Of a stretch of DNA of 64,000 nucleotides, positions 38,825 to 43,142 are shown piece after piece. Both the position numbers and the translations under genes were made by a program. The notes below the pieces were generated by a model. That model was not told the origin of the DNA and made no database searches. It saw nothing but the letters and a program-made list of their open reading frames with translations. Position 1 is the first letter of the stretch; every line of letters starts with the position of its first letter. Location of the stretch: the NCBI GenBank assembly GCA_049612225.1, contig JBMZBJ010000001.1, positions 310,885-374,884 on the forward strand. The letters run 5' to 3'. Origin of the DNA: Porticoccaceae bacterium. Its GTDB lineage: Bacteria; Pseudomonadota; Gammaproteobacteria; Pseudomonadales; Porticoccaceae.

Positions 38825-38859
38825 CAAAAAAACCCCGCATCCACAGATACGGGGTTTTT
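38825..38859 (-). terminator. Rho-independent terminator, inferred to be the displaced native groEL terminator
   Basis: On the minus strand: AAAAACCCCGtatctgtggatgCGGGGTTTTTTT. It begins 22 nt after the orphan MGGMM-stop fragment. Confidence 0.8.
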
Positions 38860-38880
38860 CTATAGCTGAGAGAGCGAAGG

Positions 38881-38898
38881 TTACATCATACCGCCCAT
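38881..38898 (-). pseudogene. groEL: Orphan groEL 3' end fragment (codes M-G-G-M-M-stop)
   Basis: The minus strand reads ATGGGCGGTATGATGTAA. The live groEL tail at 41493-41519 reads ...ATGGGCGGTATGGGTGGCATGATGTAG. Confidence 0.8.
38887..38898. repeat. Left copy of the 12-nt direct repeat cataccgcccat (putative att core)
   Basis: Exact repeat of 41508-41519. Confidence 0.85.
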
Positions 38899-39058
38899 TC
38901 TCTCATAACTGATTGTTTTAATTGATAAAATAAATTTTACCTCATGGGCATACCCCACTTCGTACCCCACCAAAAACTCCGGTGGCGGGGTGGGAGGGTT
39001 TTGGGTGCAAATCAACATAGAAATCTCTAGCTGTTTGAACTATATAAAAAGGATGTAT

Positions 39059-39628
39059 ATGGAAATTCTATCAAAAAAAAATAAACCCATTCTCAGAATA
39101 GATAGTTATGGGAGAGCTATTTTTTTCTTTCTAGGAAAAACAATAGGCGGCGATAAAATTCTTCACGTTGAAGAGTTCAAACCTATGCTGCGAAAGGAGA
39201 AGTTCTTGCTGGTTACTTACGAAGGATTGTTACCAATAGCATACGCTCAATCACAATTTGCTACAAATAACGAATTTTCTAAATTTTGTCAATATGCAGA
39301 AAGTTATGCAGTAAAAAATCAAAAGAAAGAAGATGCTTCCATTTTTAATAATTTACTCAACAGTAAGAAGGAAATACCTAGAGTTACACTTTTTATAGTA
39401 TCTATATTGATATTATTTTTTGTAATAAAAATTTCAAATTCTAACACTAACAATTTATCTCTTCTCTTAATAGAGAGTGGAGGTCTACAGTCGTCGTTGT
39501 TTTTTCATGGTGAGTTATTCCGATTATTTACAAGTATCAGTGTCCATGGAAATTTTTCTCATTTATTTTTTAATCTAATCCTTCTTCTGTACTCAGGATA
39601 TTTTCTTGAAAGGAAAGCTTTTAATTGA
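39059..39628 (+). pseudogene. Rhomboid-family intramembrane protease-like gene, 3'-truncated
   Basis: GELFRLFTSISVHGNFSHLFFNLILLLYSGYFLE matches the rhomboid TM2 signature (WR..T..F.H....H..FN). The downstream GxSG catalytic helix is missing. AGGA ribosome-binding site before the ATG at 39059. Confidence 0.55.
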
Positions 39629-40070
39629 TTCAAAGGAACTAAAAGAATTTGGATTGAGAGATTATAGAAAGCAGTCAGCTTCTGTGATGCAAAATGATGA
39701 CCTATTCAGTGGTTAAATAATTGAAAATATTAGTTTTTTTGATCCCAAAGTAGATTTGGAATTGGTAAAAACTTCTGCTTATTTGGCCGGAGTAATGTCT
39801 GAAATAGAATCTATGCCTATGAAATTTCATAGATTTGTTGGAAGTATGGGAATGGCTTTGTCGGGAGGGCAAAAGCAACGAATTTTATTAGCTCGCGCTT
39901 TATATGCAAGGCCTAAAATATTGTTTCTCGACGAAGCTACCAGCCATCTAGATAATGAAAATGAGAAAATAATAAATGATTCTTTAAAGTCGCTAAATAT
40001 TACAATAGTAATGATCGCCCATAGAGAAAGTACAATTAAATTGGCTGATAGGGAAATTAGTTTGGGTTAG
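39600..40070 (+). pseudogene. Remnant of an ABC exporter ATPase domain (bacteriocin/PCAT-type exporter C-terminus) with an in-frame stop
   Basis: A single frame reads ...KGKLLIDSKELKEFGLRDYRKQSASVMQNDDLFSG-TAA(39714-39716)-IIENISFFDP...LSGGQKQRILLARALYARPKILFLDEATSHLD...IAHREST. Walker A, the TMD and any peptidase domain are absent. Confidence 0.8.
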
Positions 40071-40111
40071 TATTTTCTAAAGATTAAACTTCTTGATTAA
40101 AAGCTTACTGA

Positions 40112-40471
40112 CTATTTGCTAGTTTTTTTAAGTACAAATGATAAGGATAGTCCTACAAGAAGCTGATAGATAATATAGGCTAGTATGTAGGTTGGTATAA
40201 TCACTAATGGGAATAGCAAATTATTTTCGAAAAGAGTAGATGCTATAAAAATAAAAGAAATGAAGCTTGTAATGAGTGAAATTGAAATATAAAAAACTCG
40301 AGTAGGAAGAGATTCACGCTGACTATCCCAAGCTTGGGAGGCATTAAAAATAAAGGCACGCTTTTCATTTTTGTTTAATATTCGCCATTTAGACGAAAAA
40401 TAAATGCAACATGCACTACACCCAATCGATCTCAATGAGTATTTTATCTTTGAAAGCAGATTAGGAATCAT
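40112..40471 (-). CDS. Small membrane protein, candidate microcin immunity protein
   Basis: 119 aa with two long hydrophobic helices in the C-terminal half. It starts 45 nt downstream of the microcin-like gene on the same strand. I recognise no family. Confidence 0.5.
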   Translation of the reverse strand: MIPNLLSKIKYSLRSIGCSACCIYFSSKWRILNKNEKRAFIFNASQAWDSQRESLPTRVFYISISLITSFISFIFIASTLFENNLLFPLVIIPTYILAYIIYQLLVGLSLSFVLKKTSK

Positions 40472-40516
40472 GTTGAATTTACTTTTTGACGGTTACTGAG
40501 CATCGGGTTTAATAGC

Positions 40517-40738
40517 TTAAACGCCACTAGTAGCTAGATTGTATCCTACACTAGTTGCAACGCCTATACCAAAGCCAACTGCTGCTCCTGCAAGAGCGCC
40601 AGCAGGGCCTCCAACAATTATCCCAACACCAAAGCCGGCAACAGTAGCTGCCCATGTTGATGCTACACCAAAAGGAATATTTCCAGCTGTAGTGCCGCCA
40701 GTGACTTCGGCTATTTCTGATTTAGTAAGTTCTCTCAT
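40517..40738 (-). CDS. Class II microcin/bacteriocin-like precursor with double-glycine leader
   Basis: The 15-aa leader MRELTKSEIAEVTGG resembles the colicin V leader MRTLTLNELDSVSGG. The 58-aa mature part is Gly/Ala-rich and uncharged. AAGGA ribosome-binding site 7 nt before the ATG. Confidence 0.8.
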   Translation of the reverse strand: MRELTKSEIAEVTGGTTAGNIPFGVASTWAATVAGFGVGIIVGGPAGALAGAAVGFGIGVATSVGYNLATSGV

Positions 40739-40827
40739 TGCTATTTCCTTTAGTCAAATAAAGAGTATGTGGAAATTAGGTTTGAATCCACCCATACACT
40801 TCATTCAACCACATAATTAAGAGGGAA

Positions 40828-40856
40828 TCTATACTTATGTTAAGTATATAGTTCAA
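40828..40856 (-). promoter_or_regulatory. Sigma-70-like promoter candidate for the microcin gene, with overlapping inverted repeat
   Basis: The minus strand reads TTGAAC-17 nt-TATAGA. The palindrome TATACTTA-tgt-TAAGTATA (40830-40848) overlaps the spacer and -10 element. Confidence 0.45.
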
Positions 40857-40874
40857 GCATGTATATCGGTAGTA

Positions 40875-41048
40875 TTACGGTATTCTTGATGCCAGTTCGT
40901 TCGTGATGTTCTGCATTGTTCCAAGCGCATTGGAACGCTCTATATCTGTTAGGTGAGGATTGGCAAGATGGTTGAAGTATTGTCGATACAGCACTTGCAT
41001 TTCAGGTGTCTTCATCGTTGCCAGCTCAAATCGTGTAAGTAGTTTCAT
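40875..41048 (-). CDS. Hypothetical 57-aa protein (below the ORF-track length cutoff)
   Basis: Hand translation gives MKLLTRFELATMKTPEMQVLYRQYFNHLANPHLTDIERSNALGTMQNITNELASRIP. GGAG ribosome-binding site 7 nt upstream of the ATG. Confidence 0.45.
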   Translation of the reverse strand: MKLLTRFELATMKTPEMQVLYRQYFNHLANPHLTDIERSNALGTMQNITNELASRIP

Positions 41049-41426
41049 TGTTATCTCCGTATGTTGGAGATCGCGTCTATCGCGACCTTTCTTGAGATCG
41101 CGTTGCCAGTCGTTGGGATTTAAAACAGCACCTTCGGCTGGAACCTCAGAGTAAAAGCTTGTCTCAGGCTTGTGGTTTATAAAGTACTTACCCGATCTAT
41201 GGGGATAATACGCACAGCTTAGTCACTCTCATTACACAGGACCCAATGTGGGCGGCGTGTAGCGGCGTCCACACTGCCTATGTTTGAGGAAAATAGTGCA
41301 CAGCTAGGATTTTTTCGTCACATGCGCTCGGTATTTGCGAATTTTCGATCTATTAAGTTTACTTTCCTTTGACGGGCGAAAACCAAATTGCACGCTAAAC
41401 CAAGCAGCTAGCTTGCTGCACACAAA

Positions 41427-41458
41427 CAAAAAAGCCCGAAAGTAAACACTTTCGGGCT
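41427..41458 (-). terminator. Rho-independent terminator currently serving groEL
   Basis: On the minus strand: AGCCCGAAAGtgtttacTTTCGGGCTTTTTT, 35 nt after the groEL TAG. Confidence 0.85.
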
Positions 41459-41492
41459 TTTCAAGCAGCTAGGGCTTAGTAGTAATAATCTA

Positions 41493-43142
41493 CTACATCA
41501 TGCCACCCATACCGCCCATACCACCCATGCCACCCATATCCGGTGCCGCTGGTGCTGCAGTATCAGCTGGGATCTCGGAGACCATGGCTTCAGTGGTGAT
41601 CATCAGACCGGCGATAGAAGCCGCTGCCTGAAGAGCTGTGCGAGTTACTTTGGCCGGATCGAGAATACCCAGTCCGATCATATCGCCATAGTCACCCAGG
41701 CCAGCGTTGTAACCGAAGTTGCCCTCGCCATTCTTGACTTTATCAACAACCACAGAGCCCTCTTCACCAGCATTTTCAACGATCTGACGCAGTGGAGCTT
41801 CCATAGCGCGACGCGCGATGGCAATCCCTACAGTCTGGTCCTCATTGGCACCTTTGAGATCTTCGATCTTTTGGCAGGCGCGAACCAGGGCGACACCACC
41901 ACCGGGGACAACACCCTCTTCGACGGCGGCGCGGGTAGCATGCAGGGCATCTTCAACCCGTGCCTTTTTCTCTTTCATTTCGATTTCAGTGGTGGCACCC
42001 ACTTTGATAACTGCCACACCGCCGGCCAGTTTAGCCACGCGCTCCTGGAGCTTCTCGCGGTCGTAATCTGAACTGGTCTCTTCGATCTGAGCGCGGATCT
42101 GATTGACCCGAGATTCGATATTTGCACCCTCACCGGCACCGTCCACGATAGTGGTAGCCTCTTTGGTCATGGTCACTCGCTTAGCGGTTCCCAAATGCTC
42201 AAGGGTAGCACCTTCCAGATCCAGACCGACTTCTTCAGAAATCACAGTACCGCCAGTGAGAATGGCGATATCTTCTAGCATCGCCTTGCGTCGATCACCA
42301 AAGCCCGGTGCTTTACAGGCGGATACTTTGACAATGCCACGCAAGTTGTTAACTACCAGAGTGGCCAGGGCTTCACCCTCAACATCTTCGGCAATAATCA
42401 GCAGTGGCTTGCCAGCTTTGGCCACTTCTTCTAACAGTGGCAGCAACTCGCGAATATTGGAAATCTTTTTATCAGCTAACAATATCAGTGGGCTCTCCTG
42501 CTCAACACTCATACTGTCCTGATTGTTGATAAAGTAGGGGGACAGATAGCCGCGGTCAAACTGCATACCCTCAACGATATCCAGTTCGTTTTCCAGACCG
42601 GAGCCCTCTTCCACAGTGATAACGCCCTCTTTGCCCACCTTGTCCATTGCCTCGGCAATAATAGCGCCAATGCTCTCATCACTGTTGGCGGAAATAGTAC
42701 CTACCTGAGCGATCTCTTTGTTATCGGAACAGGGCTTGGCAATGGCGGCAATCTCTTCAACTGCTGCACTGACCGCCTTGTCGATACCGCGCTTGAGATC
42801 CATGGGGTTCATGCCAGCGGCAACCGACTTTAAACCCTCATTGACAATAGTTTGAGCCAGCACGGTGGCGGTAGTGGTGCCATCACCTGCGTCATCGGAA
42901 GCTTTGGACGCAACTTCTTTGACCATTTGCGCACCCATATTTTCAAACTTGTCCTGTAGTTCAATTTCTTTAGCTACAGAGACACCATCTTTGGTGACTG
43001 TGGGTGCCCCAAATGACTTGTCCAAAACCACATTGCGACCCTTGGGCCCCAGAGTTACCTTTACGGCGTTGGCCAGAGTGTTTACACCTTCCAGCATGCC
43101 CTGGCGAGCGCTGTCGCCAAATTTTACTTCTTTAGCTGCCAT
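41493..43142 (-). CDS. groEL: Chaperonin GroEL
   Basis: 549 aa, [12 protein letters not shown]..., with the ...[13 protein letters not shown] tail. Confidence 0.98.
41508..41519. repeat. Right copy of the 12-nt direct repeat cataccgcccat (inside the groEL GGM-repeat codons)
   Basis: Exact repeat of 38887-38898. Confidence 0.85.

Follow-up and report, generated by a model that had tools for sequence, protein, structure and literature searches.

The locus studied here belongs to a stretch of 64,000 nucleotides from a Porticoccaceae bacterium (the 64-kb window) and raises the question of how a groEL-type tail came to lie far downstream of an intact groEL, the gene of an essential chaperonin. 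The original prediction, made from the sequence alone, was that an element had integrated site-specifically into the end of groEL. The features on which it drew are all found in the sequence, namely an orphan tail reading M-G-G-M-M-stop apart from the live groEL stop, a 12-nt direct repeat, hairpins with T-runs behind both tails and an AT-rich interior of foreign composition. The locus is organised as follows:

43187-43480, minus strand: groES (Cpn10), upstream of groEL
41493-43142, minus strand: groEL, 549 aa, intact in the list of open reading frames, with its stop codon TAG at 41493-41495
41493-41510, minus strand: attL core ATGGGTGGCATGATGTAG, native at positions 1-9, with the G that ends the stop codon contributed by the element
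41429-41462, minus strand: intrinsic terminator (15-pair stem and T-run), supplied by the element and now serving groESL
38899-41492: inserted DNA, 2,594 nt, 37% G+C, absent from L191 and identical in L192
38899-38975, minus strand: P arm of the element, with the direct arm-type repeats GGGGTA (38963-38968) and GTGGGGTAT (38950-38958)
38881-38898, minus strand: attR core ATGGGCGGTATGATGTAA, the orphan tail, with positions 6 and 9 from the element and the last stop base from the host
38861-38880, minus strand: 20-nt patch 3′ of the orphan stop, differing from L191 at 9 of 20 positions
38822-38865, minus strand: native groESL terminator (hairpin and T-run, terminator scan), displaced 2.6 kb from groEL
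38053-38691, minus strand: downstream native gene for a Urate_ox_N-family membrane protein (212 aa, Pfam PF06181)

The 12-nt repeat cataccgcccat (38887-38898 and 41508-41519) carries no significance by itself, because by our own estimate chance would already yield about 0.5 exact 12-mer pairs in 4.2 kb and a repeat scan of the region returned many comparable repeats. Aligned from their stop codons, the live and orphan tails are identical at 15 of 18 positions, and the scan paired them as 17 nt at 88% (family D10). The repeat becomes significant because the orphan tail abuts the terminator that is native to groEL in relatives, and because a near-identical strain has the empty site.

The Empty Site in Relatives

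Comparison with relatives, as suggested in the original prediction, supported integration at the groEL tail at two levels. In 28 genomes, Porticoccaceae and related ones, the same membrane-protein gene follows groEL at a distance of 163-448 nt, and groEL invariably ends in ...ATGATGTAA with TAA as the stop codon (28/28), the orphan 18-mer being matched exactly in seven; groEL of Porticoccaceae relatives is 87-93% identical to that of the window. The orphan tail, hairpin and spacer are collinear with the native groEL end of these relatives, and homologous counterparts of the hairpin were found in L002, L049, L001, L007 and others. The second level is the ~98%-identical strain L191, where groEL...ATGGGTGGCATGATGTAA is followed directly by an identical hairpin and then by the next gene. 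Its flanks are 98.1-98.5% identical to those of the window on both sides, the two flank matches overlap by the 17-18-nt core, and homology breaks exactly at this core. The insertion is therefore precise relative to the empty site, with the inserted DNA lying between two copies of the 18-mer at the groEL tail. Its G+C content is 27-37% at 39050-40400 as against 50-58% in the flanks, and the terminator at 41429-41462, missing from the L191 empty site, resembles that of L030 at the same place.

Attachment Cores and Strand Exchange

The attL core has 17 of its 18 positions in common with the attB of L191, the last base being the exception, whereas attR shares that last base and is mismatched at positions 6 and 9. 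Since the differences are distributed in this way, strand exchange probably took place within core positions 10-17, inside ATGATGTA. The GGM codons of attL are native because they are identical to those of L191, and the element replaced nothing beyond the final stop-codon base and the terminator. Positions 1-9 of the orphan tail are element-derived, as predicted for an attR, rather than stranded native sequence. The original prediction had the element bring a replacement 3′ end and terminator and displace the native ones. The exchange of terminators holds, as does the displacement of the last stop base, but the replaced 3′ end shrinks to that single base in comparison with L191, and the first nine positions of the orphan are not native.

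Gene Content of the Insert

Five coding regions were recognized within the insert:

40875-41048, minus strand: 57-aa ORF, function unassigned
40517-40738, minus strand: class II microcin-like precursor, 73 aa, with the putative double-glycine leader MRELTKSEIAEVTGG
40112-40471, minus strand: hydrophobic 119-aa protein, candidate immunity protein, adjoining the microcin gene on its downstream side
39606-40070, plus strand: C-terminal fragment of an ABC exporter ATPase domain in two ORF pieces, a pseudogene
39059-39628, plus strand: truncated rhomboid/rhombosortase-like gene, 189 aa, ending after the first ~37 domain positions

The microcin-like precursor, whose leader we take to be of the double-glycine type from general knowledge of such leaders, gave weak, sub-threshold Pfam matches to Bacteriocin_IIc (E 0.003) and MccV (E 0.008). 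No family was matched by the 57-aa ORF in Pfam and NCBIfam searches or by the 119-aa protein in profile searches; position and hydrophobic composition suggest the latter as the immunity protein. These microcin and putative immunity genes look intact. The ABC exporter and rhomboid genes are truncated: the former, 57% identical to an ABC gene within another groEL element (L160), covers only positions 94-137 of 137 of the ABC_tran profile, and the latter, also called as 189 aa in the annotation of L192, covers positions 2-37 of 143 of the Rhomboid profile, with a weak rhombosortase match. Neither an integrase remnant nor arm sites were detected in the groEL-proximal part (41049-41428), the GGGGTA/TACCCC pair is absent within 320 nt of the live groEL stop, tblastn searches of the window with the integrases of L103 and L168 gave noise only, and the whole 64-kb window has no integrase of either type. 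The missing integrase and integrase-side arm pair, together with the truncated ABC and rhomboid genes, are the reasons for reading the element as decayed.

A Family of groEL-Tail Elements

A database search for duplicated groEL tails, likewise suggested in the original prediction, revealed a widespread architecture and intact versions with a tyrosine recombinase adjoining groEL. Complete elements were found on a single contig in L103 and L168. Each leads from the groEL end and a terminator through an inverted GTGGGGTAT pair and the gene of a 400-aa integrase (domains Arm-DNA-bind_3, Phage_int_M, Phage_integrase) into about 10-11 kb of cargo and closes with the arm and an orphan tail. P4-like tyrosine integrases ~220 nt after groEL occur in both and in Yersinia enterocolitica, Morganella morganii, Shewanella baltica and Pseudoalteromonas; all four named genomes examined have homologues (65-68% identity) at this distance after groES-groEL and the inverted motif pair at +132-143 and +181-193. 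This inverted pair is present in 6/6 integrase-bearing left ends and absent from all integrase-less cassettes, including that of the window. L157, which shares the window's own synteny, begins inside such an integrase; its other end has the arm and the orphan tail, followed by the downstream gene known from the window. Because the groEL-proximal end of the window element (TAG followed by TAGATTATTAC...) differs from the TCATCC...-type start of integrase-bearing elements, the remnant did not arise by simple internal deletion from one of the intact elements found.

The orphan-proximal end of the window element has the arm layout GGGGTA-N6-GTGGGGTAT with a 51-nt AT-rich spacer to the core. L030, L048 and about 80 metagenome loci share this motif and its spacing, often in tandem cassette arrays; the composite arm and core pattern matched 99 metagenome stretches, 80 loci having conserved arm and core, and the window's arm is 73-81% identical to those of L166, L123 and L180. 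Unrelated cargo is found within the same architecture (a LysR regulator and a peroxidase/KatG-like protein in L030, a RimK-like protein in L048). Many cassettes have a conserved arm but no integrase and stand two or three to an array, and most small cassettes in metagenome arrays also lack integrase-side arm sites. Element ends with 94-99.8% identity over ~580 nt give way to unrelated DNA right after the 18-mer in several contexts; the clearest of these cases are large elements rather than small cassettes.

Proposed Origin and Alternative Explanations

We consider it likely (probability about 0.85) that a mobile island was site-specifically integrated by a tyrosine recombinase in the last 18 nt of groEL and that the window now holds its integrase-less remnant. 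Adjacency and arm-site logic point to the P4-like integrase as the probable catalyst, with the 18-nt tail of groEL serving as attB. The reconstructed attP would consist of the GGGGTA-N6-GTGGGGTAT arm, 51 nt, ATGGGCGGTATGATGTAG and the terminator. Strand exchange would place the element's stop-codon base and terminator behind groEL (attL) and the native stop base and terminator behind the element's arm (attR), leaving the GroEL protein unchanged. Loss of the integrase gene and integrase-side arm sites would have come later, with decay of part of the cargo, an order of events that we infer.

The route by which the remnant entered this genome might have been a different one. Integration could have occurred in a closely related lineage, the integrase-less cassette then arriving by homologous recombination through conserved flanks, which is compatible with an island origin of the element and which we regard as a real possibility, if below even odds. 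The mismatched patch after the orphan stop (positions 19-38 from the first base of the core) is followed by 334 nt of perfect identity to L191, and groEL has 9 mismatches to L191 in its last 182 nt (4.9%) but 15 over the 1,318 nt before them (1.1%); both suggest entry by recombination rather than integration in situ, and a remnant without integrase and integrase-side arm sites fits this route. However, the stop-to-terminator spacer is hypervariable and third positions of GGM codons vary freely among relatives anyway, and L191 is a single empty-site strain whose spacer (in the window CCTTCGCTCTCTCAG) could be the derived state.

Continued mobility of the remnant, as a non-autonomous element moved in trans by the integrase of a co-resident groEL island, with the arrays as platforms of exchangeable cassettes, seems rather unlikely to us. 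The well-preserved arm (both repeats, 51-nt spacing) and cores, the many integrase-less cassettes in arrays and the identical cassette ends beside different neighbours would agree with it. But heterobivalent integrases normally require arm sites on both sides, and the inverted pair is missing in integrase-less cassettes; the window holds no integrase, and the large size of the clearest identical-end elements also speaks against it. The alternatives "decayed remnant or mobilised in trans" in the original prediction were apt.

It is very improbable that other machinery built the arrays, either XerCD at a dif-like site (IMEX) or an integrase of the integron type. Such arrays are superficially like those of integrons or IMEX, and core and next bases of some cassettes (GGGCGGCATGA-TGTAAT-AGATTTTAAAT) resemble Escherichia coli dif at ~19/28 positions by eye, yet native attB sites have no dif-like right half and are unrelated past the stop codon, each intact element brings along a P4-like integrase with matching arm sites, and neither attC-like structures nor intI were seen. 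A coincidental repeat, with the insert arising by transposition, illegitimate recombination or GGM-repeat slippage, is effectively refuted by the recurring architecture, the intact elements L103 and L168 and the L191 empty site: repeats of 12 nt are not improbable in 4 kb and GGM-coding DNA is repetitive in itself, but the insert boundaries match the empty site to the base, ~80 independent loci whose cargo is unrelated show this 16-18-nt boundary together with the arm motif at its spacing, and no transposase or inverted terminal repeats were seen at the insert in ORF, repeat and profile scans.

Comparison with Known Systems

The novelty of the groEL 3′ end as an attachment site, implied in the original prediction, was overstated, since it is documented in staphylococci and for Bxb1 (PMC8125051, PMC4651549, PMC1470463). 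In staphylococci it was shown experimentally, the islands having 21-bp att sequences and a tyrosine integrase gene adjoining groEL (PMC4651549), and the attB of Bxb1 lies in the 3′ end of mycobacterial groEL1, where integration through a serine integrase leads to a biofilm defect (PMC1470463). No description of the groEL tail as an island target in Gram-negative bacteria was found in the literature. The staphylococcal phage-inducible and fusB islands SeCISE48, SaRIfusB, SeRIfusB-704 and ScRIfusB target the groEL tail like the family described here, but they reside in Firmicutes and are phage satellites with helper-phage packaging, whereas some integrase-bearing gammaproteobacterial elements encode AlpA and defence cargo, in part also a TrwC relaxase and a coupling protein, and the family has the arm motif GTGGGGTAT and often forms arrays. 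Bxb1 shares an attB in the 3′ end of a groEL paralogue and differs by its serine integrase and in not preserving gene function.

P4-like or related integrases are also used by gammaproteobacterial islands targeting yicC and guaA. SGI1 at the trmE 3′ end and dusA-targeting islands (10.1101/2021.06.18.448947) likewise use P4-like or related tyrosine integrases at conserved protein genes. Such islands resemble the groEL family in having the integrase and an AlpA-type excisionase at one end, a regenerated target gene, mobilization genes and variable cargo; they target other genes, the groEL family the GGM-coding tail. The original prediction drew the analogy to tRNA and tmRNA islands, for which PMC4383910 describes the same (Islander) logic of a split target, a replacement 3′ end and a displaced fragment marking the far end. 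Here the target is protein-coding, and only the last stop base and the terminator are replaced.

In Streptococcus thermophilus, the 3′ end of fda harbours the CIMEs and accretion arrays of the ICESt1/ICESt3 family. CIMEs are att-flanked elements at the 3′ end of a housekeeping gene, without integrase and transfer genes, in tandem with or left by integrase-bearing relatives. The groEL remnant shares this integrase-less, att-flanked state and differs in phylum, target, integrase family and the lack of integrase-side arm sites, its trans-mobilization being putative. The window element is a decayed, CIME-like member of a widespread gammaproteobacterial groEL-tail island family, and the remaining 2.6 kb, comparable to a cis-mobilizable element, retain the microcin gene and the putative immunity gene.

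The insertion at the end of groEL and its empty site

In the window, groEL is followed by an AT-rich insert, on the far side of which lies an 18-nt copy of the end of the gene (the orphan tail). The features of this region are:

38822-38865: strong hairpin with T-run
38881-38898, minus strand: orphan tail, reading ATGGGCGGTATGATGTAA
38887-38898 and 41508-41519: the two copies of the 12-mer cataccgcccat
38899-41492: insert, 2,594 nt
38950-38958 and 38963-38968: the arm, two direct GGGGTA(T) repeats
41429-41462: strong hairpin with T-run
41493-43142, minus strand: groEL, 549 aa, TAG stop

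The tails, 12-mer, hairpins and composition were re-read and agree in every point with the original prediction; G+C is 27-37% between the hairpins vs 50-58% in the flanks. The 12-mer repeat alone is not convincing, because about half a pair of exact 12-mers is expected by chance in 4 kb (~0.5 by our own estimate) and many comparable repeats are listed in the window. The weight of the case therefore lies on the position of the repeat and on the comparison with other genomes. An exact-protein look-up of the window's GroEL returned no match.

The window derives from a SAR92-like gammaproteobacterium of the Porticoccaceae. Between groEL and the Urate_ox_N-family membrane-protein gene downstream of it, 28 related genomes have a gap of 163-448 nt; in all of them this neighbour is the one found in the window, and groEL ends in ...ATGATGTAA without exception, the exact orphan 18-mer being present in seven. 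When aligned, the orphan tail, hairpin and spacer of the window are collinear with the relatives' groEL end, terminator and spacer, the break in homology to their groEL end coinciding exactly with the 5' edge of the 18-mer. A metagenome contig (L191) provides an empty site: the protein encoded in its flank is identical, several kb on either side align with the window at 98.1-98.5% identity, and groEL...ATGGGTGGCATGATGTAA precedes the same hairpin and gene. Aligned to the window, its two flanks have precisely the 17-18-nt core in common. The occupied window recurs at 100% identity in a second contig (L192), and sequence identical to that of the window's strain is found under SRR27204696. L191 settles that the insertion is precise and bounded by direct repeats of the groEL 3' end. 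The empty site had been predicted in this form, a groEL tail directly followed by the hairpin and downstream gene, and the same order is found in the 28 relatives. The site-specific integration of an island into the coding end of groEL was correctly interpreted from the sequence.

An Exilibacterium MAG (L065:7700-8850) also has a groEL ending in TAG, a stop that among 37 relatives is otherwise seen only beside an insert. The 1.07-kb gap following it contains neither orphan tail nor arm and holds a 194-aa ORF recurring in L054, L072 and L080; its TAG may represent natural variation or a scar.

Probable crossover and consequences for groEL

The attachment sites read ATGGGTGGCATGATGTAA for attB (L191), ATGGGTGGCATGATGTAG for attL and ATGGGCGGTATGATGTAA for attR (both in the window), and groEL...ATGGGCGGCATGATGTAA is the tail form that would serve as the attB target. 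Assuming an L191-like ancestor, the element would have contributed positions 6 and 9 of the orphan tail and the host its last base, with the reverse in attL, and these core polymorphisms would place strand exchange within ATGATGTA. The frequent G at core position 1 across 80 metagenome loci with the same arm and core confirms an element origin for the left part of the orphan tail. The GroEL protein is unaltered by the insertion; from the element come a new terminator and the third position of the stop codon, nothing else. The earlier notion that it had brought a replacement 3' end and terminator is accordingly right for the terminator and for that single base of the stop, while the rest of the coding end is native.

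The 20 nt just 3' of the orphan stop (38861-38880) show nine differences from L191, followed by 334 identical nt, and the last 182 nt of groEL (41493-41674) carry nine mismatches, a divergence roughly fourfold that of the remaining gene. From this divergence of both flanks, the cassette may have entered the lineage by homologous recombination, imported from a neighbour in which the integration had taken place. Alternatively, the L191 spacer may be the derived state; the spacer variants in question, directly after the stop, are CCTTCGCTCTCTCAG vs TCACTGCCCACACGG.

A family of elements sharing arm and core

That other genomes should carry a second tail beside groEL was borne out by two of the fetched genomes and by the 80 metagenome loci, all sharing arm and core. 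In a Cellvibrionaceae MAG (L030) the insert of this architecture is 3.6 kb long and encodes a LysR regulator and a KatG-like peroxidase, and in a Pseudomonadales single-cell genome (L048), which has a TAG stop, it is 1.8 kb long and holds a RimK-like gene; the cargo of both is unrelated to that of the window. In 3/3 inserts (window, L030, L048) the motif TGGGGTA-N4-6-AGTGGGGTAT lies 51-54 nt inside the orphan tail, the 51-nt spacing between arm and core in the window being identical to that in L030. We define here a family of groEL-tail-targeting islands with a P4-like integrase. A search pattern made of this motif and the core is specific within the 80 fetched loci and matches 99 metagenome stretches, with about 20 of 100 matches due to chance since they lack the GGM core, as does L081, the only match in viral_contigs. 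The end common to the 80 metagenome loci is conserved over ~110 nt and consists of GGGGTATAAAGTGGGGTATC, ~51 AT-rich nt including AATAAAAACAA, and then [A/G]TGGGCGGCATGATGTAA. In several contexts, element ends of 94-99.8% identity adjoin unrelated DNA right after the 18-mer, an arrangement that reads as the signature of site-specific mobility.

Many contigs contain arrays of two to three cassettes 3' of groEL. Tandem arrays of this size, made of integrase-less cassettes of 0.8-8 kb, were observed in L117, L133, L151, L174, L177, L179, L084, L106, L136, L141 and L158; each cassette ends in the conserved arm and 18-mer and starts with one of a few recurrent types (the palindrome TAGATTTTAAATCTA with a terminator, TTGCAT repeats, or TTTATGCTTG...). 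None of the integrase-less left ends, i.e., those proximal to groEL, is like the integrase-bearing type.

Many metagenome contigs (L082, L085, L094, L112, L133, L138, L139, L152, L153) stop at a fixed ~107-118 nt before the arm motif. Such a constant distance suggests that short-read assemblies break at the arm as a repeated sequence, and in turn that groEL-adjacent islands are often missing from MAGs. The commonest gene beside the right end encodes an AEP-TOTE primase-helicase (a TOTE conflict-system protein of 794 aa), which recurs in 11 loci (e.g., L099:2155-4539) and ends ~86-99 nt before the arm motif in six of them.

The probable recombinase and intact elements

A looser screen revealed P4-like integrases at the far left of two intact elements (L103 and L168). 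In both, the groEL end (...GGMGGMM*) is followed by a terminator, an inverted pair of the GTGGGGTAT motif and a 400-aa integrase reading away from groEL, with Arm-DNA-bind_3, Phage_int_M and Phage_integrase domains, and then by ~10-11 kb of cargo, the conserved arm and the orphan tail. The motif common to both arms would fit the arm-type sites of a heterobivalent integrase. Homologues of the integrase are abundant at 64-77% identity, and in 4/4 named genomes (Yersinia enterocolitica, Morganella morganii, Shewanella baltica and Pseudoalteromonas sp.) the gene lies ~220 nt 3' of groES-groEL, with the inverted motif pair again ahead of it, at +132-143 and +181-193. In the named genomes examined the integrase is followed by an AlpA-type gene, and two of the four carry a TrwC relaxase and a coupling protein together with restriction-modification and other cargo. 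Intact versions with a tyrosine recombinase, whose existence had been anticipated, are thus at hand. Among 5,426 complete E. coli genomes, blastn found nothing matching the Yersinia enterocolitica gene; relatives occur in other Enterobacterales.

P4-like integrases are present in L103, L168, L186 and L188-L190. TrwC relaxase occurs together with T4 coupling protein in L186 and L190; L124 has a coupling protein. A contig with the window's own synteny (L157) opens within a P4-like integrase; at its other end stand a type I restriction-modification system, arm, orphan tail and the same downstream genes. The inverted GGGGTA/TACCCC pair stands between replacement terminator and integrase in 6/6 integrase-bearing left ends, and in 0/11 integrase-less left ends after a live groEL, the window included.

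A 313-aa PF12835 (Integrase_1) protein, encoded ~1.1 kb from the arm in Porticoccaceae-type elements such as L161, was first taken as the recombinase. It is cargo rather than catalyst, because both the gene and the ~1 kb of non-coding DNA before it are found, at 77-84% nucleotide identity, in places away from groEL that have neither arm nor core. The gene invariably has ~1 kb of ORF-free DNA in front of it and a 102-122-aa ORF behind it (L161:10480-12830, L162, L119, L137, L110, L181-L185), and its unrelated contexts include defence islands at tRNA-type sites. The unit could be a self-contained recombination module or could hide a large non-coding RNA; Rfam gave no match in L161, L157 or L166. 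XerCD/dif-like or integron-like machinery was rejected.

The copy in the window

No integrase was detected in the window (tblastn E > 7), six-frame translations of 40739-41492 yielded no integrase pseudogene, and neither ORFs nor profile search of the insert revealed a relaxase or coupling protein such as an integrative and mobilizable element (IME) would carry. Lacking an integrase, the window's copy is a derivative and not an autonomous member of the family. Its cargo is partly truncated: the rhomboid-like gene is incomplete, and the ABC exporter is reduced to the last ~45 positions of the ATPase-domain profile, split over two ORFs, which falls short of a C39-peptidase ABC exporter. The truncated rhomboid-like ORF ends where the ATPase fragments start, and the segment at 39590-39760 looks like a deletion that fused two unrelated cargo genes. 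No damage is apparent in the double-glycine microcin-like gene (73 aa) or in the hydrophobic 119-aa ORF beside it. Pfam hits of the precursor to Bacteriocin_IIc (E 0.003) and to MccV (E 0.008) stay below the gathering scores, and its leader MRELTKSEIAEVTGG fits the known double-glycine consensus. Apart from distant ABC similarity, none of the window's cargo recurs in other groEL elements.

With the integrase gone, the inverted arm pair absent and the cargo eroded, the view of this element as a decayed remnant is upheld. We conclude that the element has decayed to a derivative without integrase, one that resembles a cis-mobilizable element, and consider its movement in trans unlikely. At roughly one chance in five, the microcin cassette might instead be a live unit of a groEL-tail cassette platform in many marine Gammaproteobacteria, in which small integrase-less cassettes, each with its own groESL terminator and arm, would be shuffled and spread in trans by the P4-like integrases of co-resident islands. 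If true, this would amount to integron-like gene capture anchored in an essential, universally conserved chaperonin gene.

Relation to known systems and significance

The groEL 3' end, for which the original prediction knew of no description as an island attachment site, has been described as one. In staphylococci it is an experimentally shown att site, used by the PICI SeCISE48 with the gene left unaltered and its last 18 bp overlapping att (PMC8125051), and the fusB islands SaRIfusB, SeRIfusB-704 and ScRIfusB have a 21-bp att in groEL (PMC4651549); the serine integrase of phage Bxb1 targets the 3' end of mycobacterial groEL1 (PMC1470463). The family described here is a convergent re-use of the target exploited by staphylococcal PICIs, not a new mechanism. 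Its gene content is not PICI-like, its elements carrying AlpA, TrwC, coupling protein and restriction-modification genes. PICIs typically encode a repressor, a primase and packaging-interference genes. The mechanism is that of a standard island with a P4-like integrase, as at tRNA genes, trmE, dusA, yicC and guaA. A full-text literature search found no description of a Gram-negative family targeting groEL, and large island databases may already list such islands.

The GGM-coding tail of groEL, nearly invariant over its 18 nt across many bacteria, is a docking site for a large family of gammaproteobacterial islands, ranging from marine Porticoccaceae, Cellvibrionaceae and Alteromonadales to Yersinia enterocolitica and Morganella morganii. 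They carry restriction-modification and other defence systems, toxin-antitoxin pairs, oxidative-stress genes and bacteriocins. Groups engaged in comparative genomics and binning should handle groEL-adjacent DNA as a variable hotspot, in which assemblies break at the repeated arm. The P4-like groEL-tail integrases are candidate integration tools with a broadly conserved, gene-sparing attB. For the host, the element swaps the groESL terminator, which could change 3'-end formation of an essential operon.
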